From sequence record PQ805430.1: 64,000 bases of DNA. One strand, given 5' to 3'. This DNA is from Escherichia phage EK8. Position 1 is the stretch's first letter; each line of letters opens with the position of its first letter. Shown here in pieces: positions 3,525 to 51,232 of this stretch. Made by a program: the position numbers and the translations under genes. Below the pieces are notes generated by a model that was given only the letters and a program-made list of their open reading frames with translations, was not told where the DNA came from and did no database searches.

Positions 3525-3560
3525 GGCTTTTAGTAAGAAAAAGCCAGATTAAATCTGGCT
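3525..3560 (-). terminator. rho-independent terminator candidate
   Basis: perfect palindrome agccagat-taa-atctggct followed on minus strand by ttttcttact. Confidence 0.4.
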
Positions 3561-3567
3561 TATTGGG

Positions 3568-5793: not shown

Positions 5794-6963
5794 TCAATCG
5801 TCCTCCGGCATTTTAAAGTGTACAACCTGACCGAATGGCGGTGTGAAACCTGGGTTACCATAGACTGCCCAGATCACCGGTTTACGGGGGTTAGGAATGT
5901 TGTGCAGATTGTGGATGTAACCATCCGTCAATACAACCAGCCAGCGGGACTGATCGGCAGCGTAGGATTCCATCAACTCGTCGATGACCGTACCACCACC
6001 GCCCTTCATCTCAATGTTCAGGAGAGCCTTGAGACTACGGACACGGTTTTTGCTACGCAGCACATGGTCAAACTGCATCACCTCGATATAGTCCGGGTTG
6101 AAGCCCTTCAATACGTGGTGAGTTTCACTGACGAAGAAGTTGAAGATCTTATCGGTTATTGATCCTGATGTATCCCAGCCGAAAGCACCTGGGCCTAAGC
6201 CAGGGGAATATTGACTCGGCAGATAGATACCCATCGGGTGATAACGACGGTTCGGACGCATCCAGTTGAAATCGCCTTTGGTCATGGCGAAAAACAGACG
6301 ACGAAGCACACGCTGCCAGGGAATGGCAGGCTTAAGAATGCTGTCAATCAGTCGCTGTAAGTCTGGGCCAATATCGCTGGGCATTTTGCCAGCCATCTCA
6401 GCCATCGCCTTACCACGCATGACAAGCTCTTGCACCTTCTGCTTAATTTCCTGTCTGGTTTCGGTCTGGTGAGGCCCGTTAGGTTCACGCAGATCCTTCA
6501 TCGGCATACCGCCAAACATATTGTCCGGGGTAGAGCCTTTACCATTCTCTTCCTCTTCATCCTGTAGCAGGCGATACACCTGCATAGTGGAGAGGTTACG
6601 GAAATCTTCACGCAGTAGACCACCCTTCGGCATTTTCAGGCCGACACGGGTGAGGATTAAGTTGATCACGTAATCCGCAGCTTTGTTCCAGAGGTCAGGA
6701 TCCATACCCTGAGCACGTTCAGTGCAGTGCTCCAGTGCGATATGCAGACCTTCATGGGCGACGATGAACTCACGCTCATCAGGGGTGAGGGATTTGAAAA
6801 ATTCCTCGTTGTAGTAACAGTTCAGCCCGTCCGTAAAGGCCGTGGCTTCTGTATTGTTAATGCTGTGCTTACAGCCCAGGATGATGTGAGTGAAGAACAC
6901 CATCTCATCTTTTGTAAGTAGGCCGATCTTGGCCTTGCTCATAATTTTTTGGAAGTCCATCAC
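5794..6963 (-). CDS. vWA-domain protein with N-terminal zincin-like HExxH domain
   Basis: HEGLH motif plus MIDAS-like DTSGS; sits beside MoxR-type ATPase; start could be the internal Met at 6903. Confidence 0.6.
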   Translation of the reverse strand: MMDFQKIMSKAKIGLLTKDEMVFFTHIILGCKHSINNTEATAFTDGLNCYYNEEFFKSLTPDEREFIVAHEGLHIALEHCTERAQGMDPDLWNKAADYVINLILTRVGLKMPKGGLLREDFRNLSTMQVYRLLQDEEEENGKGSTPDNMFGGMPMKDLREPNGPHQTETRQEIKQKVQELVMRGKAMAEMAGKMPSDIGPDLQRLIDSILKPAIPWQRVLRRLFFAMTKGDFNWMRPNRRYHPMGIYLPSQYSPGLGPGAFGWDTSGSITDKIFNFFVSETHHVLKGFNPDYIEVMQFDHVLRSKNRVRSLKALLNIEMKGGGGTVIDELMESYAADQSRWLVVLTDGYIHNLHNIPNPRKPVIWAVYGNPGFTPPFGQVVHFKMPEDD

Positions 6964-7504
6964 TGTTACCTTTCAGTAAGATCATGGTTTTAATTTCGAA
7001 TGCCCGATCATTTATCAGCGACCAATCGAGTTGACGCAGATAATCGTCGAGCAGATATAGTTCACTTTTAATACCCTCATGGGTATCAACCACCATCCAC
7101 TTATGTACCATGAACTCACTTTCGTCAGACCAGTAGTACATATCGCAATGCGCACGCATTGTTCTTGATGACTGTGGGTTGAATTTCTCCGTACTGATAT
7201 TGATTATGCAGTGCGGAATGTAGGCTTGCCCCAGCAGCTTAGAAGGCGACGGGCTGGATGGTTTAATAAACCGGGAAAAGAGACAGAGAGGATTACGCTG
7301 GAATGACCACACGAGTGGCAACTGCATATCCTCTTGGATGGGTAGTATGATCCTCTGTGCCTCTTCTAAACGAGAATCGGGGACTACCACAAATATTTCT
7401 TCTGCCTTTTCGAATTGGGAAGCCCAGCTTTGTTCGTACTGTTCTTTCCATTCACGCCCGGAGGCCAGACGGGGCTGATCGTTTAGCCACGGATACTTGC
7501 TCAT
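6905..7504 (-). CDS. hypothetical protein (199 aa)
   Basis: ORF in operon context. Confidence 0.45.
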   Translation of the reverse strand: MSKYPWLNDQPRLASGREWKEQYEQSWASQFEKAEEIFVVVPDSRLEEAQRIILPIQEDMQLPLVWSFQRNPLCLFSRFIKPSSPSPSKLLGQAYIPHCIINISTEKFNPQSSRTMRAHCDMYYWSDESEFMVHKWMVVDTHEGIKSELYLLDDYLRQLDWSLINDRAFEIKTMILLKGNSDGLPKNYEQGQDRPTYKR

Positions 7505-7519
7505 GATAGTCCCCTTTAC

Positions 7520-8152
7520 TTAGCCGACGATAGAACGGTCTTCTTTGCCGTGGCGTTTCACAATTTCAACGGCCATGTAATACGGCATTGCAGTGATGTT
7601 CAGGCTTTCCACTACAGCGGTTTTTCCGCCGTGCAGAATAGCGAACACATTAGGATTGTTACGGCTTTGGTAAACATCCACCGGGCCGGACATACCGTCC
7701 ATACGAGTGATCTGCACAAAACGCAGTTTGTTGGTCGGTTGTTTTGCTTCCGGCTTACCGAACATCGCGTTACATGCTTCGCAGTCGGTACGGCCACAAT
7801 GCTTTTCAGGGATAGCCGCATCACGCAGAGCAGAGAACAGATAGCTCAGAGCGTCGATAGCATCATCCTGGCTTTGTGGATCAAAGATTTCGGGATCTTT
7901 ATACTCCGGGTTCGGGCCAGCCGGTTCAGCCTGTTGATACGCAGTCTGGTCTTCGCCGGGTTTAGCCGGGTCAACAGCCACTTCGGGCATTACACCGACT
8001 TCCAGTGCAGCACCGGCAGCGACAACAGCCTCCTCTACGAGGTTACGCAGATTGGCTCGTTGATCCTGGCGAGCACGAGTGATTGCCAGTTCAATTGCCA
8101 GTTCTTGCAGGCTTTGTGGTAAAGAATTAAAGGTACGGATGGTATTAGACAT
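7520..8152 (-). CDS. hypothetical protein (210 aa)
   Basis: ORF in operon context. Confidence 0.5.
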   Translation of the reverse strand: MSNTIRTFNSLPQSLQELAIELAITRARQDQRANLRNLVEEAVVAAGAALEVGVMPEVAVDPAKPGEDQTAYQQAEPAGPNPEYKDPEIFDPQSQDDAIDALSYLFSALRDAAIPEKHCGRTDCEACNAMFGKPEAKQPTNKLRFVQITRMDGMSGPVDVYQSRNNPNVFAILHGGKTAVVESLNITAMPYYMAVEIVKRHGKEDRSIVG

Positions 8153-8193
8153 TGACTGTCTCCAGTTAAAGTGGGGCCGAAGCCCCAGGGGGA

Positions 8194-9234
8194 TTAATGC
8201 CAGAGTTCTTTGCTGTTACGAGCGATCCAGTCCTTCATCGCTTCATGCTGGATGAGTGAATCGTCACGCGCCATGATGTGACGGAATGCGATTACCTGGT
8301 ACTCCATCAGCATACGCTCGATGTACGGCACCAGTTTATCGATGTTGTCCTTATTGGCGTGCTGAGCCATTGAACCGGCTACAGCGTAAACCAGCGACGG
8401 ATTATCATCGCTTTCCGGGCAACGGGCTTTCAGCGGGTCTGCCAGAATGTCAGCCAGCTTCGGCACCTGGTCGAAGATTTTACAGAATGCAATAAATTCA
8501 GCACCTACACCAGATGAGATACAGCCAGCCACCAGCGGCAGGTCAGCATCAGTTACCGGTTCGCCACGGATCAGCTTATCCAGGAACATCCAGGTACGCG
8601 GAGCAGCGAAGGTCAGGTCGTCGTGGTCAGGCTTGAAGTGATGCACATAGTCCGGTTTGAACTCCAGAAACGCAGCGATACGATAATCGATATTCTGCGT
8701 CAGGGCATACTTCATGAAGCAATCCAGGTTGGTATACACCTGGAAGTTGATCATACGAGACTGCAACGGAGTTGGTAACGGGTTAACGATGGCACCATCG
8801 TCTTCCATGTTACCGGCAGCGGCCAGGAGTGCATGGGAGTGCAGCTTACGCTGGCCTACCATTTTATCCAGGATCAGCTTGAATGCAGCAGCCTGTACGG
8901 ACGGAGCCGCAGACGGCAGTTCATCCAGGAATACCAGCCAGCCTTTGTAGCCTTCGGGGATAGAATCCCCTTCGACCGGGAATACGTCGAACGGTACATA
9001 CTCCGCAATGTTGCGGGCACCGGACGTGTTGAAGTATGGCAGACCGTTCATGTCAGCAGGGTCATACGTGCTCAGACGCACGTCAATGACCTTGAGGCTG
9101 AACTTTTCTGCGATGGTGCGAATGATATCGGATTTACCGATGGCAGGTGATCCATGCAGCATAGGCACCAGACGTTTTTTGAGCACACGTTCTACGAACG
9201 GGATGGAGTGATCCAGACGGACTTGGGTTGTCAT
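8194..9234 (-). CDS. MoxR-like AAA+ ATPase
   Basis: P-loop LHGSPAIGKS, Walker B LVFLDE; classic partner of vWA proteins. Confidence 0.65.
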   Translation of the reverse strand: MTTQVRLDHSIPFVERVLKKRLVPMLHGSPAIGKSDIIRTIAEKFSLKVIDVRLSTYDPADMNGLPYFNTSGARNIAEYVPFDVFPVEGDSIPEGYKGWLVFLDELPSAAPSVQAAAFKLILDKMVGQRKLHSHALLAAAGNMEDDGAIVNPLPTPLQSRMINFQVYTNLDCFMKYALTQNIDYRIAAFLEFKPDYVHHFKPDHDDLTFAAPRTWMFLDKLIRGEPVTDADLPLVAGCISSGVGAEFIAFCKIFDQVPKLADILADPLKARCPESDDNPSLVYAVAGSMAQHANKDNIDKLVPYIERMLMEYQVIAFRHIMARDDSLIQHEAMKDWIARNSKELWH

Positions 9235-9236
9235 AA

Positions 9237-10004
9237 CTATACCTGTAAGAAGTAACGGTGAATGAGTTGATTCACAACACGGACGCCAATAGCATTCGTC
9301 TTGTAGACCATTTTAAGTTGGGCCTGCACTTCGTTGATGACCTTCTTCTTGTACTGGCTTAAGTTCTTGCCAGTACCGAACGCCTTAATGTACTCGTCCA
9401 GTAAACGAGACTCCGGCACCAGGTCGAGAAGGGATTGCAGGGACGGTCGGATGGTACTGAAATGCAGTGCCACACGTCCTAAAAATTCTGTACGCACACC
9501 CAGTTCACGCATACGGTCGTGGGTGAGGTTAGCTTCGCCATTGAAAGCACCAGCGAACACGAATAATACGTGCTCAACGGAGACTTTCTCGTACTTGCCA
9601 TAGTCACCAAAGACACTGGCGGTACTGCTTTCCAGCATGGTGAGGAACTCGTTCTGGACACCGGCCAGAGCTTCGTGAGTCTCACCGCCTACGCCATTGG
9701 TAAACAGCTTATCGAACTCGTCTACGAAGATTACGATGCCGTTTACCCCGACCATTCCCCGGAGGGGAGCCAGGGCTTTGGATAACGAGTTACCCGATAC
9801 ACCTTCTTTGGTTAAACCAGCAGCGTTGACTTCCAGCATCTGAATTTCACGCTCTTTGGCGAGAGTCGAGATCAGGTGAGATTTACCAGATCCTGATTCA
9901 CCCGACAGGATGAAGTGAGGGCGGATCGCACCTTTAGATTTAGTGTAAGCATCAAAGACGCGGCCTAATACGCCCGCAACTTCTTCTTGTTCTGGGAGAA
10001 TCAT
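9237..10004 (-). CDS. AAA+-type ATPase (255 aa)
   Basis: Walker A GESGSGKSHL, Walker B IVIFVDEFD. Confidence 0.55.
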   Translation of the reverse strand: MILPEQEEVAGVLGRVFDAYTKSKGAIRPHFILSGESGSGKSHLISTLAKEREIQMLEVNAAGLTKEGVSGNSLSKALAPLRGMVGVNGIVIFVDEFDKLFTNGVGGETHEALAGVQNEFLTMLESSTASVFGDYGKYEKVSVEHVLFVFAGAFNGEANLTHDRMRELGVRTEFLGRVALHFSTIRPSLQSLLDLVPESRLLDEYIKAFGTGKNLSQYKKKVINEVQAQLKMVYKTNAIGVRVVNQLIHRYFLQV

Positions 10005-10075
10005 AGATACCTCGAATTAGGTTCAGGTGCCTACTCACGGTCGGCAGGGACTTTCATATTTCAGCACCAGAGGGA

Positions 10076-10468
10076 TTAACGACAGTCGAACGCAATACCG
10101 AATTGCTTCTGGCCTTCGTAGCGGAATACGCCATAGAAGCCCGCATACTGGCCTGTGCCTTTGCTGAACAGCAGACCAATGTTGTTGTAGCCCTGTATAC
10201 CAGAAGGCTTCTGGATGATGAGCTGAGGCGACACCATTGCTACTTTGCCTTTCGCGTTAATCACGGTGAATCGGTCACCCTGATCACGGATGAAGGAGAT
10301 GGCCAACGGCTGATCCGGTTTACCCGTTTCAGTGCGAACAGCCTGACACCAGAGATCAGTAGCCGGGGCGGAGGCAACCGCCGTAACCTGCGTAGCAGGT
10401 GTAGGCTGGTTGACGACGCACCCAGCAAGAGAAAAAACAGCGACAGCAACGAGAATAAGTTTTTTCAT
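10076..10468 (-). CDS. lipoprotein (130 aa)
   Basis: signal peptide MKKLILVAVAVFSLAGC with lipobox LAGC. Confidence 0.6.
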   Translation of the reverse strand: MKKLILVAVAVFSLAGCVVNQPTPATQVTAVASAPATDLWCQAVRTETGKPDQPLAISFIRDQGDRFTVINAKGKVAMVSPQLIIQKPSGIQGYNNIGLLFSKGTGQYAGFYGVFRYEGQKQFGIAFDCR

Positions 10469-10638
10469 TTCTTAACTTCCGGTACGAATTGCATTACACA
10501 ATTCTGGTTTCGAGGTATGTTGAGTTCGCACTCATCACGTTTTTGTGTAAGTTCACTAGTTACTGTCCAATAGGTCAGCAAACCCATAAGAAATGCTCCC
10601 AACACTAAACCAATAACAAATTCCGGTTTATGATTCAT
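10465..10638 (-). CDS. small membrane protein (57 aa, below ORF-track cut-off)
   Basis: hand translation MNHKPEFVIGLVLGAFLMGLLTYWTV...; AAGGGG RBS; stop overlaps the lipoprotein start. Confidence 0.35.
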   Translation of the reverse strand: MNHKPEFVIGLVLGAFLMGLLTYWTVTSELTQKRDECELNIPRNQNCVMQFVPEVKK

Positions 10639-10960
10639 CTTTGATGCCCCTTAAACCAGGGATTGAGTTAAGCCGGGAGATGTATTCACCGATGTAAAAC
10701 AACTCATTAATTTCATCTTGCGTACAAATTAATTTATTGCCTGCATCAGTGATGATTTCCCAGGTTGGTATGAATACTAAAGCCGGGATACCATTGCCTT
10801 CACGCAGAACGAACGCATTACCGCAACGGCGACCATCTTTAGTGAAAAGCTGGCGACCAACCTCTACTACGCCATCAGGCTTATAAGCAGTGGCCCATTC
10901 GGGTAAAACTTCACGTTTGAATTGCTCATTTTGATCTTCAAAGTAATCTTCAAAGCTCAT
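10628..10960 (-). CDS. hypothetical protein (110 aa)
   Basis: ORF in operon context. Confidence 0.5.
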   Translation of the reverse strand: MSFEDYFEDQNEQFKREVLPEWATAYKPDGVVEVGRQLFTKDGRRCGNAFVLREGNGIPALVFIPTWEIITDAGNKLICTQDEINELFYIGEYISRLNSIPGLRGIKDES

Positions 10961-11319
10961 ACCTGCTCCTTCTTGGCACGCTGCATTCGTTTACAATTCT
11001 CTTTCTGGCTTACCAGTTCGAGGTGTTCCGGATTACAGCAGAGACGGTTACGGCATTTATGATCCACCTGCTTATTGCCGGGGATGTAGCCGAAGTAATG
11101 GGTAGCCATGACGATGTGAGTAGCACACGTCTGGCTGTTAATACTGATACGGCCATAACCTCCACCACGTCCTTCGCCCGAAGTGGGGCCAGTCCAGATA
11201 TGACAAGGGGATACGACACCGTTAACGCGATAACCGCAGTCACGGATATCCACCCGCTTCATGATACGGTCGCAGATTTCCTGACGACGATCAGGATGGG
11301 GATGTTTTTTCGTGATCAC
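10957..11319 (-). CDS. HNH homing endonuclease
   Basis: VDHKCRNRLCCNPEHLE HNH motif with Cys/His zinc ligands. Confidence 0.7.
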   Translation of the reverse strand: MITKKHPHPDRRQEICDRIMKRVDIRDCGYRVNGVVSPCHIWTGPTSGEGRGGGYGRISINSQTCATHIVMATHYFGYIPGNKQVDHKCRNRLCCNPEHLELVSQKENCKRMQRAKKEQV

Positions 11320-40141: not shown

Positions 40142-43100
40142 ATGGCAGACTCTCTGTTGTCCCAGGCTCTTAATGCTTTAAGCAACGGCGAGTTCACCAA
40201 TCCTACCGAAGCTGTTTCCGTTCCGCAGGCTGCTCCCCAGCAGCCTGTCTCCAAAGATTCTCAAGTCCTTGACGCCACCCAACGTATTAATACTGGCTTT
40301 GCTGCTAAGGGCATCTATCCGTCTATCTCTGGTGAAATCGAACGTTTAAATCAGCAAAAAGCAGGACGTGAACAAGTCGTTCAAGCATACGAAGAAGATA
40401 TGCAACGTCTGGTTCCAACCAACGCTTTAGAGTCTGGTTCCCCGGTAATTCGCACCGGTGCCCAGATTACCAACGCAATGGCTGGTTTCGGCAGTTCAAT
40501 TGCACGTATCGCTCTCCAGGTGAAAAACCTTAACAATCTCGGTGCTGTAGCTGCCGGGATGGACGGTGCCACCGATGAAGAAAAACTCGCCTTTAACCGT
40601 GAAGCCACTCAACGTGGTGCTGAGGCTGCTGCACTGGTAGGCAATAATGCCCGTCGTGTTCAGGATATCCTCGGCGGTGTTCCGGGTGCGTCTGCTAAGG
40701 CGATTGCCGAAGCATCTGAAATCCCGAATCAGCTTAAGGCTTACCCTTCTGATACCAACCTGCTTGACCGTGAGATTCCTCGTGGTGCAGCAAAAATTCC
40801 TTCTGCAACTCAGGACGATTCTCTTCTGGGTTCGGTAGGTCAATACTTCAATAACCTGAATGATCGACTTGTCGGATCGGTAAATGGCATGACTGGTGAA
40901 GACCAGACCGGCCAGACTGAATCTGTACGTGACCGACTGCAACGTGCTCAGACTGCCCTTACCCAAACTCAGAAATCCCTGGGTAACACTGCACAAGGCG
41001 TCGATAACGAATGGGGAACGGACTCCTGGGTTAACCGTGAACAAACTCAACGTATGGCTCAGCAACTGGAAGAAGAGAATAAAGATCTCTCCATCCCTGG
41101 TGCTATTGCTAACACTGTTGGGGAATATCTGGCTAACCCTTCACTGGTTATCCAATCTGCCGCAGAGTCCTTACCTTACGCACTTGGTCGTGTCGGTATC
41201 ATTGCCGGTACTACCGGTCAGGCGGTACAAAACCAGACTGATGGTTACCGTGGTCAGGCAGATGGACAGCTTCCTACTGATGAGCAAATCAGTGATGTAA
41301 CCCGACTCAATGCGTTGCATTCTGGTTTGAACTTTGTGGAGAACGTAGTCAATGCACGCGCTCTTACCGGTCTTAGCAATGCTGCTATCACTGCTCCACT
41401 TCGCCGTGGTGGTGAAGCACTGGCTGATACTGCCCTCGGACGAGCGATTACCAACGCTGTCGCTCGGAATGGCGTATCTCGTGCTGCTCTGGCAGCAGGG
41501 CGAGCAATTACTCCCGAACCTGTTAGGGAACTTGGCCTGACTATGGCCATTAACGGTCTGACCGAAGCTGCACAAAATCAGATCGAAACTCGCAACCTGC
41601 TCGGTGATGATCGCTGGGATACCGAAGGCAACATCAATGCTGGTGTGCTTGGTGCCCTGTCTGCTGGTGTAATGACTGGCCCATCTACTCTGGCGGCTGG
41701 TGCCGGTGCCGTAGGTGAGCGTATTGCCCGTGCTGCTCAGGAACGTCGTGACGCTGCTAACCCACAAGCTGCCGAAGCTCGTCGTGCTGCACAAGACGCT
41801 GCTAAGCCGTTTGAAGATCTGACCAACCCGGAACATGCGGATTACAACCCGCAGGCTGCTATTCGCCAACAGACCAACGTGTTTGCTGATGAATCAACTA
41901 CTCCTGAAGTACGTCAGGCTGCTATCGACCGTGCTCAGTCCGTCCGTGATTCTGCCGAACAGAACCTGGCTTCGGTTACTGATGAAGTACGCCAAATCCA
42001 GAAAGATATGGCTACCCGTCAGGAAATCGAACGTCGTCTGGAAGATATCCAGACCAACCCGGATTCTGAGTACAAAGGTAGCGAAGCTCAACTGACCACT
42101 ATCCGTGACCAGATTGATGAGCGTATGCCGGATGAAGCTGCTCAACAGGATCTGGTTTCCCGCTTCCAGGCTGCAAACGAAAACGTTGAACGTGTGCGTA
42201 GTGCCTACGATCAGTTTGAGAATGCTGCTGGTCTGCGTGAACGTCAGGCTCCAGAAGAAGCTCAGGCTCAGATGGATACTGCTACCAATCCTGATGCAAC
42301 TCAGGAACAGGTTGATACGGCTGCTGACCATGTGGTTACGCACCCTATGCAGTACACCCCGGAACAACTCCGTACTCTGGCCGATGATACGACCAACCGT
42401 TTCAGCGACACTCAGCGTGAAGCGATTCGTAAACTGGCTGATGCCCGTGTTGCCCAGAACAACCTGAAAGATGATCTGCGTGTAAACCAGGATATTATGC
42501 AGGGTGGTAAGGGCTACCGTTCCCTGGGTGAATACACCTCTGCTTATGCTGCTGCTATCCGTTCCGGTGATAAGACTATGGCTACCAACCTGCGTGAGCA
42601 GTTAGGTCGCTTCCAGGCTTCTCATGAACAGAAAGCTGCCGTTGCTCAGCAAATGATGGACTCTGGTAACTACGGCCAGCTTATCCGTCAGAACAGTCAG
42701 TGGGTGGCTAACGAAGGTAAGAAACTTCGTGGTAAAGATAAGACCCGTAACGGTGCTCTGGATATTCATTCTGGCTCCGGTCGTCTGGTTGCTCGTCTTC
42801 AAGAAGAAGCCGAAGCAATCCGTGCAACTTCCGCTGCCCTGGATGCAATGTCTCAGGCTCGTCCGGCTGCTCCCGCTACCGCTCCGCAGCCGTCCTCCCC
42901 TGCACCAGCGAACGACGCAACCACAACGGTGGAGGCGAAGCCGGAACCGGCAGTGGTGGAGTCGGAAGCGACTGTTACCAAATCATCCCTCTCTCACTAT
43001 GCCAATGACGGCGTACTGACTCAGGATGCTGATGGTGATATGGCTCTGCGTCTGGATCAGTTCTCTCCGGCTGAACAACAGTTCCTGCGTGACAACAATA

Positions 43101-46100
43101 TGGTTGATGCTCAGAACATGGTTAAAGCTGCTTTCTTACGCCGTGCTGAACCGCGTAAAGATGACGCCCATAAACCACGTACTCTGAACCAGCAAGACCG
43201 CATTGCCCCGGCAGAACAACAGACTCAGCAAGAGCAGGTACAGGCTCAGGATACCAATGAGAATGACCCTACTCCGGCCAGCACTGTAGAAACCGACACC
43301 AACGTAACTACCGATCAGACTACGGCAACGAAGACTGACGAGAACACGAAGGCAGACGGTGCTACCCGTGTCCTACGTCCAGAAGGTAAATCTCTGGAGA
43401 CTGCCCGTACCGAAGAACGAGCTAAGCCATTCTCAGAACAGAACCTTGTTCTCACTGGTTTCGTTCAGCGTGTCCGTGAAGGTTTCGTTAACCCACTGGT
43501 TACCGTTGAAAACTTCATGTCCAGCGTTATGGATAAAGCTGACTGGTCTGGTCGCTTCACCGAAGTGAACCGTTACCTTGCTCAGCCGATGAACGCTGCC
43601 CAGAAGAATCTGGTCGGTATGTTCACCAAATTCCATAAAGCAGTGGAAGGTGATATCGATCCTGCTATTAAACAGAAGATCGGTAAAACCCGTGGTGGTC
43701 TGGATCGCTCTGCTTATAACTACCAGGATTTTGTCCAGTTTCTTACCACTGACGGTAAACTGGATGAAAACACGAAGACGGCCCTGACCGCCTCTATGTT
43801 CACCTGGCTTGCAGAGAACGGTAACAAGCTCATCGCCACTCGTGACGATATGGCTGGCCTGTTCCATATGGATAAAGGTGAAGTACCGGTAGAGATCCAT
43901 AATCGCTTCTCTGAGATCGGTTCTTCTCAGCGTGCTGTTATCCAGTCCCTTGGCCAACGTGCTTACCAGATGCTGGGCTTCAAGGTACTGAAAGACGTTG
44001 ACCCTAACCGTGCTGGACGTATGCAGCAAGCTCTCGGCATGTACGCAATGCACGTTATGATGAAACGTGGCTACCTGGAGCAGACAACTATGACTGCTCG
44101 TGAGTACGCCGACGTTATCACTACTGGTTTGGATCCTGAAGCTGCTCAGGCTAAACGTGCAGAGTTTGCTCGTGACTTCCTGAATGGTGAGTCCATCGAT
44201 AAAGCGAAAGAGACATTCAACTTTGTTCGTGTACCACGTAAAGAAGTAAACGGTAAACTCGTACCGGCAGATAACATTGCCCGTATCGTTGAAGCCAACA
44301 AAGGGACTTCCGGGGTTATGAGCAAGCTGTTTAGCTTTGACTCATCCCAGACTTTCCCGTTGACTAAGAAGCCAGGTAAATTCATTCAGAATACCGTAGG
44401 TGACTTTGGTCAGCAGGTTCCTTCTGAATTGGCAGAACGTCTGACTAAAGCCCAGCAACAACCGTACCGGATCAATGAGTCCCTGGTTAACGCCATGAAC
44501 ACGATCCGCAATGTGGATGAAGCTGCATTGCTGCACATGATGGGTGTTCGTACTGAGACAGAAACTCCGTTCATGCACGCTCGTGACCGTATCGGGCAGC
44601 AGGCCAAAAACGACGATATCATTCGTGCTCTGGCTAATGCTGATGAGGTAATGGGTACTCTGGATTCCATCGACCAGCAGATCTATATGCCGCTGGCAGT
44701 ATGGAGTAACAACCGTGTCGGCGTAGCGTCCAACATGCTCAACCCGCAGGGGAACAAAGTTCACCGTGCAATGGTAGGCATGGAAGCACACCGTGTTGAT
44801 ATCCCGGTAAACCAGGCACCAATCGACGCCAACGGTAACATCACTGAGTACGGCCAGTTCTTACTGACTGTGGCTCAGGGTATGGAAGAGGCGCCGATCA
44901 AGAAACCAGGCACTACTGATAAGATGCCTACGGTTGATAAAGTGACTGGTGGTACTTATCTGCAAGGTATGCAGGAATACCTGAAAAGTGACAGCGTTCG
45001 TGCTGGCATTAAAGCCATGCAGAATATCGTTGAGGGTAACTCCACTCCGCGTGATATCGAAACCGTTAAGCAAACCGTTGCCGAATTTGGCATGGGGCCA
45101 CACTCCTTCCAGTCACTCCATGCACTGGCTCTGGTTAACCAGGCTCGTGAACAGGGTGCTGAAAAAGTGCAGGTTGCTATCGGTGGCGAATCAGATGGTG
45201 TCACCAACGGGCCGATCCTTACCAATGTGCTCTATGGTACGGCAGACACTGACCTTCTCGCTCGTGGTGGCCTTTACACTGCTGACGCTGGTGTTACCAA
45301 CGTACCGCAGTACCGCGAACAAGGTGGGCAGGACTACTACCAGTTATTGGGGACAGCTCAGAAGGAAGCATGGGATGCCATGTATCCTCCGACGACTGGC
45401 CGGGTAACGGATCAGAACCAGAAGTTCCGTCGTGCAATTGATTACTTATCTCCTGGTTTCGGCTCTCGTTCGAAAGCCAAAGTACAGGCTACCCCATTCA
45501 ACTACGGTTCCGGTATGGACTCGCTCAAGCGAGCAAGTGCCAGAGACACCATTGATAGTGTCTACGGTCATATCACTGATATTGCCGAAGCCTATAGCCG
45601 TTCCAAAGTTGAGGGTGATTTTGCTCGCCATAAACTGGAGAAAGCAATCGAGATCGTACTGGCCCAGGGCAAGACGCTAGGGATTAAAGTTCCCGCATTT
45701 TCCGGCCTGGGTAAAACGGAATCACTGTTAACCACCGAATTGCCACGTCCAATTGTGGACGCGATTATGCAGATCGATATGGCTATCCGTGGTGAAGCAT
45801 CCGAGACTGCGATTGAGCGTGTTGCTGCTCACTACATCAAAACCCGTGACACTAACACTGCGATTACTAATGCAGCGTTTGAAGTGGGCAAAGTTGTACG
45901 TGACCGTGCAGAGGCTCTGGCTCTGGAACAGGCAGTTAAAGACGGGCAAGTAGGTTCCATCAACGATATCGCCGTAGAAGGCTTATCGACTGATGCAAAA
46001 GCTAACCTGTCTGAACAACTGCGTGAAGCCAGTGCTATCGTCCCTACCGCTACCGGATCCCTTTCCAAAAATAAACTGGAATCAGGTTACGTGGCTGCTA

Positions 46101-49100
46101 AGGTCGGTACTACCTTCAAAACCAATGACCCAACCACCGAGGTATATGCCTCGTTCCGTGAGGGTGCTAACCCTACTGGTACTGGCTTAACCAACACCAA
46201 ACCGACGACCTTTAAGGACGTAAGATCTGGCGCTCAGGTTAAAGAACAGATCGCTCCGGGTGTGTCTACAAGTGCATTGGTTGTGCAGGGTACTGATGCT
46301 GCAATCTCAACTCGTGTTATCGCTGAGCGTCCGGCTCAGAACTTCCATGATGCGAACCTGTTCGCTATTACGGATATGATTGAAGGTGCCAAAGCGCAGA
46401 ACAAAGCCATGTGGGATACAGTGGTCGGTTATGACTCTCAGTTAGCGAATACCGAAGCATTAATCCGCACCCTAGAAGGTGTTACCCAACAAGACGGATT
46501 AACGTCACTGGATTGGATTAATATTGCCGGGTCTTTGCAACAACTGGCTTTCAAGGCTGAACTAATTGGATCCCCTAAAGAGTCCGTATCGGCGGTAGCC
46601 GTACTTGGACGGGTAGTCGGTGATGCTTATAACCGTGAGATTGCCAAGCTCAACACACTCAACGAAGTTGAGTATGTAAACCAGTATGGTTATGAGGGTG
46701 GTGAATACCAGGTTACTGCTGCCGACCGTAAAGCTCTGGCTGACAAAATTGACTCTCTACGCATATCACGGGATAAAGCGGTTGATAAGGCAATGACTCT
46801 TGGCGGTGAACTAAATACCCTGCTACAGCAAGGTACAACCACATCCAAGCGTAAAGCCGATGCTGTTAATGCTGCTCAACGCCGTCAGGCTATTGAACAA
46901 GCTGCTGCTGATAGCGTACCGGTTACCCGTGATGCCAAAGGCAAGAACGCTCTTGAGCGTTTCCTGACTGAAAGCAAAGACGGCACCGTTAATGCTAAAG
47001 ACCTGATGAACTTTACCGTTAAGTCCCTGGCTTCCGGTCGTACTGATGGTTCAGCACTGCAAAGCCGTATGCGTACCACTTACAGCGAACTTGCTAAAGT
47101 GCTCGCAGCGACTCTGCCGGAAAACCTGACCGTTAATATCCTGTCTGCTCAACATAATCCAAAAGGGGTTATGGGTGCTGAGCAGAACGTTAACTCACGA
47201 GCATGGTTTTATAGTGACGGTAAGGTAAACCAGATCAACATCAAGATGGATGGCCCGGAAGCACCGGGGCTGGAAGTTGTGCTGCATGAAATGCTTCACG
47301 CTGCCACTGCCCGTGCTCTGGATGCTGCTCGCCGTGATCCTAAAGCTAACCCGGCTCTGACCGAAATCGTTGGCCGACTGGAATCACTGCGTAGCGAGAT
47401 CGAACAGTCCGTACAGAGTATGCCTCAGTTTGCACCGGCAGTCCGTAACGTGGACGAGTTAATCTCGTGGGGTATGACTAATCCGGCATTTCAGCAACAT
47501 CTTGATGGTTTGCAGTCCTCCATGTACCCACGTCAACGCGAAGGTGTACGTGGTCGTCTGGGTTCCATGTTTAAACAGTTTGCCAACACTGTGCTGCGTG
47601 CGGTCTACGCCTTTACTGGTCGTAAGCCTTCCGCTAAACAGATGACGGCAATGGAAGCCCTAATTCTGGATACTGCTGACGTACTCCAGACTGCCACGGT
47701 TAATCCGGGCAATGCTGGTAACGTTAATCTGGCAATGGCCTCATCTACCCGTGCAGCACAAACTGCCGGACAGTACACCCATCGCCAGATATTCGATGCT
47801 CTGTCGTCCTCGACTGCTGGTAAGCGGAACACTTCTGCCTTTACCGGAAATCTGGGTAAGATCATCGAAAATGTATCGGATAAACTGTTTAGTCAAATTG
47901 GTGGTGATCACCTGACCAACCTTCCGGCAGGTCACGGTTATACACCGGGCCAGGTATGGGCGAATGCTCTTACCGGGGGCAAGGCACCGTTCACTACCAA
48001 AGCATTGGCTGCTGGTTTCCACATGACTGACCAGGAAGCATTCGCTATCGAGTCCATTGAGACTGCGGTTGCTGCTGCTCTGGATTCTGGTTTCGGTACT
48101 GCTGTGAACCGTGAGATCCGTAAATCCTGGGAAGCTGCCCGTAAGCAGGTAACCCCGGAACAGTTCCATAACGGTAACTGGAATACGGCTACCCCGGCAG
48201 AGAAAGCTGCTGCACAAGCAAAGTGGGATCACCTGTTCAAACTGGAAGCCAGCCAGAACGGTAAGAACCGCTACCTCGCACAGTTTGTGGCAATGACTCT
48301 GGGTCATGAAGAAACCAGTAAACTGATGGGCTTCACCAATGAAGTTGCCGATGCTAACGCTCCGGTCACTCCGTTCGAGAAAGCTGCTGCCTTCTTTAAC
48401 CATTCGGTTAACTGGGCATCGGGTTACCTGACTCGCACCAACAATGGCCAACTGGTAAACCAGAAGGCTCAGGCACTGGCTCAACAGTTGATTGAAATCG
48501 ACTTGAAGAACCGTGACAAATCCGTTGATGCACTTGAGAAAGCGTTTATCTACGTCAGCGATCTGGGTGAGAAAGCTGGTAATAAAATCTGGGATGCTGC
48601 TCATGCAACTGCTGATGCGAAACTGATTCGTGAGAACCCTCTCGGTATCGTTCGTATGGCCGGGTCTATTACCCGTCTGGCTGCTAAGCGTAATCTGGAT
48701 GTGCTGAGCGATACCATTCGTCAGGTACGTGATATGAATAACCCGAATACCGCTGATGGTTGGGCTGCTCAAATCCTGTCTGATATCGCTAACCCGGATA
48801 AAGTACGTAGTGCGTTCGAATCGCTGCAACGACACACGAACCTCATTGAACAACGTCGCCGTAATTTCGCAGAAATTACTCGTGGCAACGTGATGGGAGC
48901 GTTCGAAAATAACGGTGAGTATCTGACCAACGAAGATAAAACTGCGTTGTCTTATACCCTGCTGCGAACCGAAGCACACTCACTGCTCAATACCCGCTCC
49001 CTGGATGACGTTCAGCAACTGGTTTCCAGCAAAGCTAAACGTAATGCAGAGATTCGTAATCTGGAGCAAATCGTATTGGCAGATCCGAATGGTAATGATA

Positions 49101-51232
49101 TGGTTATCCGCGCTAAAGCACTCGGCTATTATATGGTGACTGGGAAACCAACTGATGTAGGTTTAGCTAAGAATGCACAAGCCATTGCTTCTGGAGCTGG
49201 TACTCACTACGTCACGACTGGTTTAGCAGACCGCAATGGTGCCCTGACAGAGGCAATAGATCAACTGGCTACTCTGTACGCCATAGACTACTCAAAACCA
49301 GAGCATTTATCGGCTACTGCTGCCGTCATGAAACGTGAGATGGCTAACCCTTACAATGGCATTAAAGCGTTGCTGAATGTGCATAAAGTGCTGGCCGAGG
49401 ACGCAGCCTCTACCCTGTTCCAGGATAACGAGATCTCCCGGATTAAAGGCTACGTTCCAGAGGTAACCAACCCTTATCGTGATGTGAAGATTGTTGAAGA
49501 GGGTGACCGTGCTCAACGTTCAGAGCTTGAGGCAATGGGGTATCAGTTTGTAGGCATGGTGCCGACTGATCCGACTATCCCAAGCATGGGCAAGAAAGCA
49601 ATGTACGCCACTAAGGACAACGGCTCTCAACGTTACGTGTCTGGTGCTGTGAGCTTAACCAGCAATCAACGTAAAGGTTCGTCGGCTATCCGTAACCAGA
49701 ACTACCGCAAAGGGCAAGGCCCGACTGTGGCCGATGGCAGCAAAGCTGTGTATGCCGCTGCTCGTCGCCGTGCTCAAATGAGTTATAAAGACTTTGACCC
49801 TACTCAGGTTAAAGATACTTATATGATTCCGGTGTTCGGAACTGATGGCCGTATTATGGACTTCCAGTACGAGATGAATGCCACTAACCGTGACACTCTG
49901 CTGGATCGTAACAATGACTTTGCACACCTGCTGGGTCAGTACGCAGGGCAGAACTTCGATAAGCTGCATAGCCCGACTCAGAACCGAGTCATTATGGAAG
50001 CTTTACACGAAGACTACCGATCCAACTACGCTGCCAATCCAGAGCGTTACGTTGCAATTGGGCCACAAGTTGCTGATGCCCGCTCCAGAGAAATCTGGGC
50101 TATGCTGCCGCAACAGACCCGTTACGACGCTGAATCAATCTGGGGTGCAGGCGAACCTATGCAGGTACGCAGTGATCTGGTCAACCTCGTGTTCGGTTTC
50201 CGTAAGCTGACAGTGGCGAATGCCTTTGATAAGGATGCCCAGGATCGCAATATGGCCGAGTCTTTAGCGACCTCCGTTTTCAACACTCTGGGCCTCCTGA
50301 CCAATTCCAACGGGAAAGTCATGGCTGCTCAGACTGAACGTGGTGTTCAAGGGGGTGTTGAACTACTGAAAGATATTATCGTGATCCGTAACGTCACCAC
50401 TTTGATGCGCAACCTAGTGGGTAATGCAGCATTGCTGAAAGCCTATGGCGTGTCTCCGACTGATATTGTGAAGGACACCAAGACTGCTTTACAGGCTGGT
50501 TTGAGCTACCGCAAAAACACTGCACTGCTGCTGAAATACCAACAGCAACAACGTGCAGGTATCGGTAACTACGAACAGCTTGAGCAGAAGATCATTCAAC
50601 TGGAAGACCAGCTTGCTCGTAACCCGATCAAGGACTTCATCGAAGCCGGTACTATGCCGAGCATAGTTGATGATGTAGATACTTCTGATACTGCGTATAC
50701 TTTTACGTCAGGCTTACAGCAGAAGATCTCTGGTGTGACTGATAAAATCCCGGCATCTGTACGGACGGCGGCTAAGTGGGCGTTTGTGACTAAAGACACA
50801 CCGCTTTACAAATTCCTGTCCAATACCGCTCAGTTCGGTGACTTTACGTCGAAATATGTGCTGTACAAATACAGTATGAATAAGGCGGATACTAAACTGA
50901 ACCACGCAGAAGCGGTACAGCGTGCAACCGATGCGTTCGTTAACTACGACCTGCCGACTTCGCCAGAGTTGCAGTATATGAACGACATGGGTTTGTTCAT
51001 GTTTACGAAGTATCGTCTGCGGATCCAGCGTGCAATGCTGACCCTGATGAAGGAACGTCCGGGCACTGCACTGGCTCAATCCGTACTGGTGTCGCGCTTT
51101 ACCGATGCACCTCCGGCACTGGAGCCTAACTTAATTACTGGTTTGGGTAATCCGTTCTCATCCGGCGTATTGCAGTTGCCGAATGCACTGACCCAGCCGA
51201 TGCCGATTAAGTTAATCCTCGGATCGCTGTAA
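40142..51232 (+). CDS. giant virion-encapsidated RNA polymerase (vRNAP), 3696 aa
   Basis: size; embedded T7-like motifs GGESDGVTNG (A), RSKAKVQATPFNYGSG (B), NFHDANL (C); N4 vRNAP is known to be about 3500 aa. Confidence 0.8.
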   Translation: MADSLLSQALNALSNGEFTNPTEAVSVPQAAPQQPVSKDSQVLDATQRINTGFAAKGIYPSISGEIERLNQQKAGREQVVQAYEEDMQRLVPTNALESGSPVIRTGAQITNAMAGFGSSIARIALQVKNLNNLGAVAAGMDGATDEEKLAFNREATQRGAEAAALVGNNARRVQDILGGVPGASAKAIAEASEIPNQLKAYPSDTNLLDREIPRGAAKIPSATQDDSLLGSVGQYFNNLNDRLVGSVNGMTGEDQTGQTESVRDRLQRAQTALTQTQKSLGNTAQGVDNEWGTDSWVNREQTQRMAQQLEEENKDLSIPGAIANTVGEYLANPSLVIQSAAESLPYALGRVGIIAGTTGQAVQNQTDGYRGQADGQLPTDEQISDVTRLNALHSGLNFVENVVNARALTGLSNAAITAPLRRGGEALADTALGRAITNAVARNGVSRAALAAGRAITPEPVRELGLTMAINGLTEAAQNQIETRNLLGDDRWDTEGNINAGVLGALSAGVMTGPSTLAAGAGAVGERIARAAQERRDAANPQAAEARRAAQDAAKPFEDLTNPEHADYNPQAAIRQQTNVFADESTTPEVRQAAIDRAQSVRDSAEQNLASVTDEVRQIQKDMATRQEIERRLEDIQTNPDSEYKGSEAQLTTIRDQIDERMPDEAAQQDLVSRFQAANENVERVRSAYDQFENAAGLRERQAPEEAQAQMDTATNPDATQEQVDTAADHVVTHPMQYTPEQLRTLADDTTNRFSDTQREAIRKLADARVAQNNLKDDLRVNQDIMQGGKGYRSLGEYTSAYAAAIRSGDKTMATNLREQLGRFQASHEQKAAVAQQMMDSGNYGQLIRQNSQWVANEGKKLRGKDKTRNGALDIHSGSGRLVARLQEEAEAIRATSAALDAMSQARPAAPATAPQPSSPAPANDATTTVEAKPEPAVVESEATVTKSSLSHYANDGVLTQDADGDMALRLDQFSPAEQQFLRDNNMVDAQNMVKAAFLRRAEPRKDDAHKPRTLNQQDRIAPAEQQTQQEQVQAQDTNENDPTPASTVETDTNVTTDQTTATKTDENTKADGATRVLRPEGKSLETARTEERAKPFSEQNLVLTGFVQRVREGFVNPLVTVENFMSSVMDKADWSGRFTEVNRYLAQPMNAAQKNLVGMFTKFHKAVEGDIDPAIKQKIGKTRGGLDRSAYNYQDFVQFLTTDGKLDENTKTALTASMFTWLAENGNKLIATRDDMAGLFHMDKGEVPVEIHNRFSEIGSSQRAVIQSLGQRAYQMLGFKVLKDVDPNRAGRMQQALGMYAMHVMMKRGYLEQTTMTAREYADVITTGLDPEAAQAKRAEFARDFLNGESIDKAKETFNFVRVPRKEVNGKLVPADNIARIVEANKGTSGVMSKLFSFDSSQTFPLTKKPGKFIQNTVGDFGQQVPSELAERLTKAQQQPYRINESLVNAMNTIRNVDEAALLHMMGVRTETETPFMHARDRIGQQAKNDDIIRALANADEVMGTLDSIDQQIYMPLAVWSNNRVGVASNMLNPQGNKVHRAMVGMEAHRVDIPVNQAPIDANGNITEYGQFLLTVAQGMEEAPIKKPGTTDKMPTVDKVTGGTYLQGMQEYLKSDSVRAGIKAMQNIVEGNSTPRDIETVKQTVAEFGMGPHSFQSLHALALVNQAREQGAEKVQVAIGGESDGVTNGPILTNVLYGTADTDLLARGGLYTADAGVTNVPQYREQGGQDYYQLLGTAQKEAWDAMYPPTTGRVTDQNQKFRRAIDYLSPGFGSRSKAKVQATPFNYGSGMDSLKRASARDTIDSVYGHITDIAEAYSRSKVEGDFARHKLEKAIEIVLAQGKTLGIKVPAFSGLGKTESLLTTELPRPIVDAIMQIDMAIRGEASETAIERVAAHYIKTRDTNTAITNAAFEVGKVVRDRAEALALEQAVKDGQVGSINDIAVEGLSTDAKANLSEQLREASAIVPTATGSLSKNKLESGYVAAKVGTTFKTNDPTTEVYASFREGANPTGTGLTNTKPTTFKDVRSGAQVKEQIAPGVSTSALVVQGTDAAISTRVIAERPAQNFHDANLFAITDMIEGAKAQNKAMWDTVVGYDSQLANTEALIRTLEGVTQQDGLTSLDWINIAGSLQQLAFKAELIGSPKESVSAVAVLGRVVGDAYNREIAKLNTLNEVEYVNQYGYEGGEYQVTAADRKALADKIDSLRISRDKAVDKAMTLGGELNTLLQQGTTTSKRKADAVNAAQRRQAIEQAAADSVPVTRDAKGKNALERFLTESKDGTVNAKDLMNFTVKSLASGRTDGSALQSRMRTTYSELAKVLAATLPENLTVNILSAQHNPKGVMGAEQNVNSRAWFYSDGKVNQINIKMDGPEAPGLEVVLHEMLHAATARALDAARRDPKANPALTEIVGRLESLRSEIEQSVQSMPQFAPAVRNVDELISWGMTNPAFQQHLDGLQSSMYPRQREGVRGRLGSMFKQFANTVLRAVYAFTGRKPSAKQMTAMEALILDTADVLQTATVNPGNAGNVNLAMASSTRAAQTAGQYTHRQIFDALSSSTAGKRNTSAFTGNLGKIIENVSDKLFSQIGGDHLTNLPAGHGYTPGQVWANALTGGKAPFTTKALAAGFHMTDQEAFAIESIETAVAAALDSGFGTAVNREIRKSWEAARKQVTPEQFHNGNWNTATPAEKAAAQAKWDHLFKLEASQNGKNRYLAQFVAMTLGHEETSKLMGFTNEVADANAPVTPFEKAAAFFNHSVNWASGYLTRTNNGQLVNQKAQALAQQLIEIDLKNRDKSVDALEKAFIYVSDLGEKAGNKIWDAAHATADAKLIRENPLGIVRMAGSITRLAAKRNLDVLSDTIRQVRDMNNPNTADGWAAQILSDIANPDKVRSAFESLQRHTNLIEQRRRNFAEITRGNVMGAFENNGEYLTNEDKTALSYTLLRTEAHSLLNTRSLDDVQQLVSSKAKRNAEIRNLEQIVLADPNGNDMVIRAKALGYYMVTGKPTDVGLAKNAQAIASGAGTHYVTTGLADRNGALTEAIDQLATLYAIDYSKPEHLSATAAVMKREMANPYNGIKALLNVHKVLAEDAASTLFQDNEISRIKGYVPEVTNPYRDVKIVEEGDRAQRSELEAMGYQFVGMVPTDPTIPSMGKKAMYATKDNGSQRYVSGAVSLTSNQRKGSSAIRNQNYRKGQGPTVADGSKAVYAAARRRAQMSYKDFDPTQVKDTYMIPVFGTDGRIMDFQYEMNATNRDTLLDRNNDFAHLLGQYAGQNFDKLHSPTQNRVIMEALHEDYRSNYAANPERYVAIGPQVADARSREIWAMLPQQTRYDAESIWGAGEPMQVRSDLVNLVFGFRKLTVANAFDKDAQDRNMAESLATSVFNTLGLLTNSNGKVMAAQTERGVQGGVELLKDIIVIRNVTTLMRNLVGNAALLKAYGVSPTDIVKDTKTALQAGLSYRKNTALLLKYQQQQRAGIGNYEQLEQKIIQLEDQLARNPIKDFIEAGTMPSIVDDVDTSDTAYTFTSGLQQKISGVTDKIPASVRTAAKWAFVTKDTPLYKFLSNTAQFGDFTSKYVLYKYSMNKADTKLNHAEAVQRATDAFVNYDLPTSPELQYMNDMGLFMFTKYRLRIQRAMLTLMKERPGTALAQSVLVSRFTDAPPALEPNLITGLGNPFSSGVLQLPNALTQPMPIKLILGSL

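Follow-up and report, generated by a model that had tools for sequence, protein, structure and literature searches.

The gene pair that we describe here, from a 64,000-nucleotide stretch of Escherichia phage EK8 (PQ805430.1; this whole stretch is the window below), joins an AAA+ ATPase with a protein holding zincin-like and von Willebrand factor A (vWA) domains, and related pairs have been described before. In the N4-like phages, gp24 and gp25 were listed among 14 core genes (as '24 unknown' and '25 vWFA domain') and classed as middle genes (PMC4193335), and papers of 2009 and 2014 both give them without a function (PMC2784036, PMC4193335). Iyer, Anantharaman, Krishnan, Burroughs & Aravind (2021) reported a MoxR and metallopeptidase-vWA pair in group 2.2 jumbo phages, and propose that it acts in assembling virions, proteolytic processing included, with the archaeal virus ATV as their precedent (PMC7824862). 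A cryo-electron microscopy study of NorQD revealed that a vWA finger enters the MoxR pore by way of the helix-2 inserts, that a further, C-terminal contact is made to the post-sensor-1 loop and that ATP drives a stretching of the partner's linker, and its authors propose this finger-in-pore arrangement as general for AAA+/vWA pairs (PMC13036017).

Comparing the window with N4, we found that its 346-aa ATPase (8194-9234, minus strand) matches gp24 over the full length (BLASTP, 42% identity, E 1e-91) and phrog_1297 at 6.6e-122, while its 388/389-aa zincin-vWA protein (5794-6963, minus strand) matches gp25 (27% identity over the full length, E 4e-39) and phrog_1314. Judged by these alignments, it is near certain that the two are the orthologues of gp24 and gp25, a pair that has been catalogued since the N4 genome was annotated and of which the window adds one further orthologous copy. 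This identity with long-listed N4-like core genes escaped the original prediction, an earlier reading of the same letters that had grouped the two genes with a second AAA+ gene and two intervening ORFs; all five open reading frames (ORFs) are indeed tightly packed on the minus strand at 5794-10004, with the lengths that it gave. The genome as a whole is that of an N4-like podophage of the Schitoviridae, near Cbunavirus, its nearest DNA relatives (about 75% identity) being Pectobacterium Cbunavirus phages and Kosakonia phage Kc283, all of them Schitoviridae. A literature search returned no paper joining Schitoviridae with the von Willebrand domain, and N4-like phages are absent from the main text of the CRISPRi-ART paper and of two transposon preprints.

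Both domains proposed for the partner were borne out by the profile check, with matches far beyond chance: DUF2201_N (Pfam PF13203, 'putative metallopeptidase') matched with 128 bits, where the cutoff is 23.2 (E 6.5e-37, from position 16 to 269 of the 271-position profile), and DUF2201 ('VWA-like') with E 1.2e-20, and together they cover the whole protein. The HEGLH and DTSGS motifs that had been pointed out translate as described, the first within HEGLHIALEH (6727-6756) of the N-terminal zincin-like domain and the second as D263-T-S265-G-S267 (6160-6174) of a metal-ion-dependent adhesion site (MIDAS) that also takes in T324 (5989-5991) and D346 (5923-5925). Across a 21-sequence partner alignment that includes N4 gp25, the residues H69-E70-x-x-H73-x4-H78 are invariant, as are N92, A94, D96 and N100, and the complete MIDAS (D263, S265, S267, T324, D346) is invariant in alignments of 21-65 homologues. 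When the alignment is widened to 64-65 sequences, H69 and E70 are nearly invariant (at least 90%) and H73, H78, D96 and the MIDAS stay invariant. A structural model of the partner (predicted local distance difference test, pLDDT, 87.3) places a helical domain at the N-terminus, in which a three-stranded sheet (31-34, 41-43, 47-50) precedes the HExxH helix (60-75), and a minimal six-stranded vWA fold at the C-terminus; the basic linker between the two domains (W..RPNRRY..LPS, residues ~230-250) is conserved in sequence and modelled with lower confidence. Searching the PDB with the single sequence gave chance LHC matches only, PADLOC-DB 2.0 gave no match, NCBIfam offered nothing useful for either the ATPase or its partner, and we found no DUF2201_N-family member with biochemistry or a solved structure in the literature or among PDB sequences. 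PHROGs gives the family itself, phrog_1314, the label 'HNH endonuclease', as do many phage records in RefSeq, that of N4 gp25 (NC_008720) included. Judged by the Pfam matches, by the invariant residues of the HExxH motif and the MIDAS and by the vWA fold, this label is a widely propagated annotation error.

These same residues bear on one of the functions that had been suggested for the pair, namely that it acts as a metal-cofactor insertion chaperone in the manner of NorQ-NorD, CoxD-CoxE or CobS-CobT, opening a target enzyme and inserting a metal into it. The N-terminal domain of the partner is a zincin-like one with an invariant HExxH rather than a domain of NorD/CobT type, and we saw no metalloenzyme as a conserved neighbour in the phages or bacteria examined. 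Because the catalytic Glu is invariant, we favour proteolysis over metal insertion, which we hold to be highly improbable and which, given a putative peptidase domain in place of an insertase-type N-domain, is the least favoured of the roles offered by the original prediction.

Assigning the ATPase to a class depended on its homologues and on its predicted fold. Taken alone, the protein does not sustain the label 'MoxR-type', since its Pfam matches are weak (AAA E 0.0082, AAA_3 0.1, AAA_5 0.13) and miss the curated cutoffs (12.7 bits for AAA_5, cutoff 22; 12.9 bits for AAA_3, cutoff 27), and a single-sequence PDB search gave no match. Evidence from homologues and fold does uphold it: a profile built from 22 homologues matches midasin AAA domains among PDB sequences at 4.6e-9, then PspF, and when 64 homologues were run against Pfam (E<=1) they matched AAA_5 (50/64), bpMoxR (34/64), AAA_3 (28/64) and Sigma54_activat (23/64), with two ATPases of bacterial cassettes exceeding the AAA_5 cutoff at 45-47 bits. 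The AlphaFold (AF2) model of the ATPase (pLDDT 91.2) matched CbbQ2 in a Foldseek search of the PDB (6l1q, E 7.6e-9, template-modelling score, TM, 0.64 on target) and NorQ (9qh4/9qh7, TM ~0.65), these being the best compact matches at 0.64-0.66 on target; dynein, Rea1 and the MoxR protein CHU_0153 (2r44) were also found, and clamp loaders and MCM appeared at lower TM. Because of the midasin profile match, the Foldseek matches, the AAA_5 matches among homologues and the bacterial partners above the AAA_5 cutoff, we accept the 346-aa protein as a predicted, divergent AAA+ ATPase of the MoxR/AAA_5 class (dynein-midasin class). Together with a vWA protein carrying an intact MIDAS and an HExxH domain, this agrees with the earlier description of the two as a chaperone-like MoxR/vWA pair.

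By alignment, the ATPase keeps every residue needed for ATP hydrolysis. Its Walker A motif is GSPAIGKS (residues 28-35, 9130-9153) and its Walker B motif ends in D104-E105 (..LDE, 8920-8925), and in alignments of 22-65 homologues both motifs are invariant along with sensor-1 N142, R160 (the candidate Arg finger), R213-T214 of a family-specific PRTW motif and a DPxDxxGxP...YxPxxxFP signature that spans the helix-2 insert. Within the model this insert is predicted to form a hairpin (residues 65-80; strands 65-69 and 76-80) between beta2 and beta3, with a local pLDDT of ~60, and a pre-sensor-1 hairpin is predicted where strand 129-131 leads into beta4 (135-142), both hairpins being read from the secondary-structure string of the model rather than from its coordinates.

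Looking beyond the window, tblastn recovered the ATPase in 829 phage records and the zincin-vWA protein in 669, the pair-carrying phages including essentially all N4-like genera, rV5-like Vequintavirus, the jumbo phages PBECO4, K64-1 and fHe-Yen9-04, the cyanophage S-TIM5 and others, to which BFVD adds PBS1 and one crAss-like virus as carriers of the family. The two genes are adjacent in S-TIM5 and in fHe-Yen9-04. A profile search of 1.84 billion cluster representatives (50% identity) counted 28,136 members of the zincin-vWA family, and we took 80 zincin-vWA loci from a species-level genome collection, some of them N4-like contigs and many chromosomal (Nostoc, Cohnella, Desulfobacter, Acidovorax). 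An ATPase homologue lies immediately upstream on the same strand in about 70 of these 80 loci (E 1e-26 to 1e-150). In the chromosomal cassettes the partner is often ~600 aa long with an extra N-terminal region and the ATPase passes Pfam AAA_5. A Pfam scan of three chromosomal loci, those of Nostoc, Cohnella and Desulfobacter, showed unrelated metabolic genes as immediate neighbours. Because of this pairing and these unrelated chromosomal neighbours, we conclude that the pair is a self-contained two-gene cassette common to bacteria and phages.

A conserved third component was sought in the 80 loci by blastp clustering of flanking ORFs, and only RtcB recurs outside single lineages (the first clusters obtained were antisense shadow ORFs and were discarded). 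RtcB (PF01139, E 1e-56 to 1e-128) adjoins the bacterial cassette in 14 of the 80 loci (L032, L040, L045, L048, L049, L058, L067, L068, L070, L072, L074, L076, L078 and L081), usually immediately upstream and on the same strand, in lineages that include Lachnospiraceae, Acidovorax, Methylotenera, Synergistaceae and Ammoniphilus. This linkage hints at a tie between the bacterial cassette and RNA-damage responses; the window holds no RtcB. Separately, a ~300-aa family that has no Pfam match sits beside a ~400-aa phage-type cassette in eight metagenome-assembled contigs (L008, L017, L023, L024, L025, L028, L030 and L061), in L061 between both partners, and it is related neither to the two ORFs of the window with 210 and 199 aa nor to the Bas54 genes considered next.

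A functional lead comes from the Vequintavirus Bas54 (MaxBurger), where HIDEN-SEQ identified bas54_0063 ('MoxR ATPase') as one of two Bas54 genes needed against the predicted defence system DS-28 that E. coli CFE311 carries (bioRxiv 10.1101/2025.11.20.689424). By our comparisons, bas54_0063 is a member of the gp24 family (27% identity across 271 aa at E 1e-24, with the PR[TS]W region included; its BP9 orthologue matches the ATPase family with an hhalign probability of 99.7), and bas54_0055, which keeps HExxHxxxxH and DxSGS, is a member of the gp25 family (E 2.8e-32, with an hhalign probability of 99.9). The ORF just upstream of the BP9/Bas54 metallopeptidase was also considered as the ATPase and rejected (hhalign probability 0.4), the true homologue lying 3.6 kb away. 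According to the supplement of the same preprint, both genes are non-essential on K-12, with insertions at 60/64 (bas54_0063) and 81/86 (bas54_0055) TA sites, and when K-12 is compared with the clinical isolate bas54_0063 is depleted at a log2 fold change (log2FC) of -7.23 (adjusted p 0) and bas54_0055 at -2.20 (adjusted p 0.009), with the genes flanking each of them unchanged. This table, Data S6 (supplementary file 9), bears the title 'resampling_K-12_vs_CFE303', but sample 311 (CFE311) is what its command line and its data files refer to. The preprint's main text is silent on the depletion of bas54_0055 and on that of the helicase bas54_0068, which is likewise depleted (log2FC -6.32, same supplement). 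The depleted Bas54 helicase and the Dda-like helicase of the window are not closely homologous (E 0.031), and we claim no helicase link between the two phages.

The Bas54 pair differs from that of the window in being more divergent (21-27% identity) and larger (394 and 486 aa) and in lying 3.6 kb apart on opposite strands, and resembles the N4-like pairs in its neighbourhood of rIIA, rIIB and helicase genes rather than virion genes. Among the roles that the original prediction had put forward, counter-defence is the one best supported, by these data on both the MoxR protein and its partner.

We therefore read the pair as a two-component, ATP-driven and MIDAS-targeted protease or remodeller acting on a host barrier protein, a reading to which we give a rough probability of 0.45. 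Its mechanistic part, which is drawn by analogy, is moderately supported, and the odds of the host-barrier role are about even. By analogy with NorQ-NorD, CbbQ-CbbO and midasin, the ATPase hexamer would grip the vWA domain or the linker through its conserved helix-2-insert pore loops, and the MIDAS metal site would capture an acidic residue of the target protein. ATP-driven twisting or pulling would then remodel the target or un-gate the peptidase domain, and the putative zincin domain would cut it. In the pre-replicative or middle phase of infection such a machine would inactivate some protein of the host, most probably a barrier specific to that host (an immune or stress effector, for example), and would have no hand in building virions. 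We favour action on a host protein because the Bas54 homologues are non-essential on K-12 and show a host-specific requirement, and because of the middle-gene class, the rII/helicase setting and the stand-alone bacterial cassettes. Three points weigh on the other side: Schitoviridae keep the pair universally, homology to the Bas54 proteins is no more than distant, and the experimental support, which carries over by analogy, comes from Bas54 and not from an N4-like phage.

Where the pair lies in the genome bears on whether it instead serves the virion. The window pair has helicase and rIIA genes around it on the early/middle strand, with an rIIA homologue and a Dda-like helicase adjoining the cluster (the helicase immediately downstream), RNAPII genes upstream of the pair and DNA polymerase beyond the helicase, far from the capsid, portal and terminase genes; the 3696-aa virion RNA polymerase (vRNAP) ORF is at 40142-51232. 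A virion-assembly chaperone or protease that folds, assembles or processes a structural protein (the giant vRNAP, the portal or tail parts) would be in keeping with the proposal of Iyer et al. (2021) for the jumbo-phage pair and its ATV tail-development precedent (PMC7824862), with the inclusion by Kaur et al. (2020) of archaeal phage-tail assembly among studied MoxR-vWA systems, with a second structural module near the gp24/gp25 homologues of roseophage RPP1 (PMC4193335) and with universal conservation in Schitoviridae, which fits a structural or core role. The setting just described speaks against such a role, as do the status of N4 gp24/gp25 as middle genes (PMC4193335), the bacterial chromosomal cassettes that stand alone with no virion genes nearby, and the Bas54 homologues, both of which tolerate insertions at 94% of TA sites on K-12, a result unexpected for an assembly factor. 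On balance we regard a virion-assembly role as unlikely.

The same middle-class expression, inside the replication and nucleotide-metabolism region of both N4 and the window, would also suit a replication or transcription remodeller that strips or cleaves a DNA-bound protein (RNA polymerase, SSB or a nucleoid protein) for middle/late transcription or replication, and so would core-gene status (PMC4193335). The papers on N4-like core genes and the N4 genome give gp24/gp25 no replication role, with no search of ours aimed at the N4 replication literature (PMC4193335, PMC2784036), and the dispensability of the Bas54 homologues on K-12 and the absence of linkage to replication genes among the bacterial cassettes likewise argue against this remodeller, which we consider quite unlikely.

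Returning to the preferred reading of a protease or remodeller directed at a host barrier, one can extend it into a 'capture-and-cut' anti-defence machine, in which the MoxR hexamer would drive a MIDAS-guided zinc protease against an immune or stress effector and the RtcB-linked bacterial cassette would serve a response to RNA-damaging toxins. We offer this extension as speculative and doubtful as a whole. Were it true, it would represent a new mechanistic class of anti-defence, an AAA+-coupled protease present in every N4-like phage and in many rV5-like and jumbo phages. More broadly, all N4-like phages have only 14 genes in common, and gp24 and gp25 are among them. Should what was seen in Bas54 hold for N4-like phages as well, this universal pair of core genes would encode a protease machine that breaks host barriers, which would matter for the host range of therapeutic N4-like phages (those of Pseudomonas, Klebsiella, Escherichia and plant pathogens), and the bacterial cassette would gain its first function. 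The interest thus rests on the unsolved function of the pair and on an emerging anti-defence link, not on this particular locus.

Turning to the rest of the cluster, the ATPase and zincin-vWA genes lie on the same strand 1.2 kb apart and are separated by a 210-aa ORF (7520-8152, minus strand; phrog_23180, 4.3e-72) and a 199-aa ORF (6905-7504, minus strand; phrog_27802, 2.3e-72), while a gene for a 255-aa AAA+ protein (9237-10004, minus strand) precedes them, its stop codon falling 2 nt before the ATG of the ATPase gene. The zincin-vWA gene could encode 389 aa from GTG 6963 or 388 aa from ATG 6960 (adjacent codons), and the ATG is probably the start, because the closest database protein, P0121 (97% identical), has 388 aa. 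At its 3' end the 199-aa ORF runs 56-59 nt into the beginning of the zincin-vWA gene, the annotation of phage Horatius carries the same overlap (10121-10708 against 9001-10170, locus L001), and a GAAAGG ribosome-binding site lies 5' of both candidate starts within the overlap, which suggests that the 199-aa insert is translationally coupled to the core gene. With 2-nt and overlapping junctions, and with the only good minus-strand terminator of the region at 3541-3561, two further genes downstream, the five genes and the two that follow are probably co-transcribed; promoter and terminator scans gave counts at or below shuffle expectation and were uninformative. Just upstream of the cluster are a small lipoprotein gene with a signal peptide and lipobox (MKKLILVAVAVFSLAGC, 10076-10468) and a 120-aa ORF (10957-11319), which match, by position alone, the 'putative lipoprotein' and 'HNH endonuclease' genes of Horatius.

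The 255-aa protein is an AAA+ protein, as had been proposed (Pfam AAA 1.7e-12, AAA_2 6.3e-11), and resembles a minimal ClpX/HslU, with PDB matches to ClpX (1.8e-11) and HslU (5.3e-11) in which Walker A/B, the Arg finger and the sensor-2 Arg align. It differs from ClpX in having no N-terminal zinc-binding domain (Walker A begins at residue 35) and GVSG in place of the pore-1 GYVG, and ~24 ClpX residues between two aligned blocks have no counterpart in it. By ClpX numbering, we take that unmatched stretch to be the IGF (ClpP-docking) loop. Orthology with ClpX or HslU was rejected, at 43.9 and 42.5 bits against equivalog cutoffs of 359 and 362, and the protein also weakly matches clamp-loader/RFC models (phrog_168, 1.9e-7; RFC large subunit, 4.7e-8). 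In PADLOC-DB 2.0 both AAA+ proteins (346 and 255 aa) gave only marginal P-loop matches (E > 5e-4). The ClpX-like gene occurs in 185 phage records, non-N4 phages included. In the Queuovirinae phage R7M it is flanked by RNase H and thymidylate synthase within the replication module, and instead of partnering a protease its product may act in replication as a loader or remodeller.

The two ORFs between the partners are much more restricted: by tblastn the 210-aa ORF was found in 14 phage records only (Cbunavirus and Kosakonia Kc283), with a weak relative in Enterobacter phage SABI, and the 199-aa ORF in 18 only, both being confined to the Cbunavirus/Kc283/SABI clade, and neither protein had a match in Pfam, NCBIfam or PADLOC. 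In the 210-aa protein the middle part is acidic and rich in proline, and an HCGRTDCEAC cluster might bind a metal. The 'exonuclease' annotation of its Kosakonia Kc283 homologue is backed by no profile.

That all five genes form one multi-component system, as their description as a single cluster implied, would fit their single strand, the 2-nt and overlapping junctions and the lack of a strong minus-strand terminator until 3541-3561, and also the position of the ClpX-like gene within a few kb upstream of the pair in several N4-like genera, represented by phiA41, SABI and Pseudomonas phage PYO2 (in PYO2 ~2 kb upstream of the zincin-vWA gene). Phyletic patterns largely refute it, as far as gene occurrence can tell. 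Phage records differ more than tenfold (185 for the ClpX-like gene, 829 and 669 for the two partners, 14-18 for the inserts), and the pair occurs without the other three genes in N4, Horatius, Bas54 and bacteria. The ClpX-like gene in turn is not beside the pair in the Cbunavirus Horatius or in N4, and it occurs alone in unrelated phages such as R7M, which matches neither the ATPase nor the zincin-vWA profile. We hold a five-gene system to be very unlikely, and the ClpX-like, 210-aa and 199-aa genes appear from their distribution to be lineage-specific, separable additions to the pair.

Comparing the pair lastly with known systems, NorQ-NorD, CbbQ-CbbO, RavA-ViaA and midasin likewise combine a MoxR-class hexameric ATPase with a MIDAS vWA partner and supply the best structural matches of both models, their roles being metal insertion, Rubisco activation and ribosome maturation. 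NorD/CbbO-type partners have no peptidase domain, and in the window partner no NorD-like finger or N-domain is evident, such that the similarity to NorQ-NorD-type systems is confined to the AAA+ and vWA cores. The pair from jumbo phages of group 2.2 is, as described in words, of the same architecture, a MoxR AAA+ whose vWA co-chaperone carries a metallopeptidase fused at its N-terminus; that description does not treat N4-like phages, and the virion-assembly role proposed in it contrasts with the expression class and the Bas54 data discussed above. N4 itself differs in that gp24 and gp25 are adjacent with only a 167-nt spacer, whereas in the window the lineage-specific 210- and 199-aa ORFs stand between the partners and the ClpX-like AAA+ gene abuts the ATPase gene. 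Gene order, strand, the early/middle region and all catalytic and MIDAS residues are common to N4 gp24/gp25 and the window pair.

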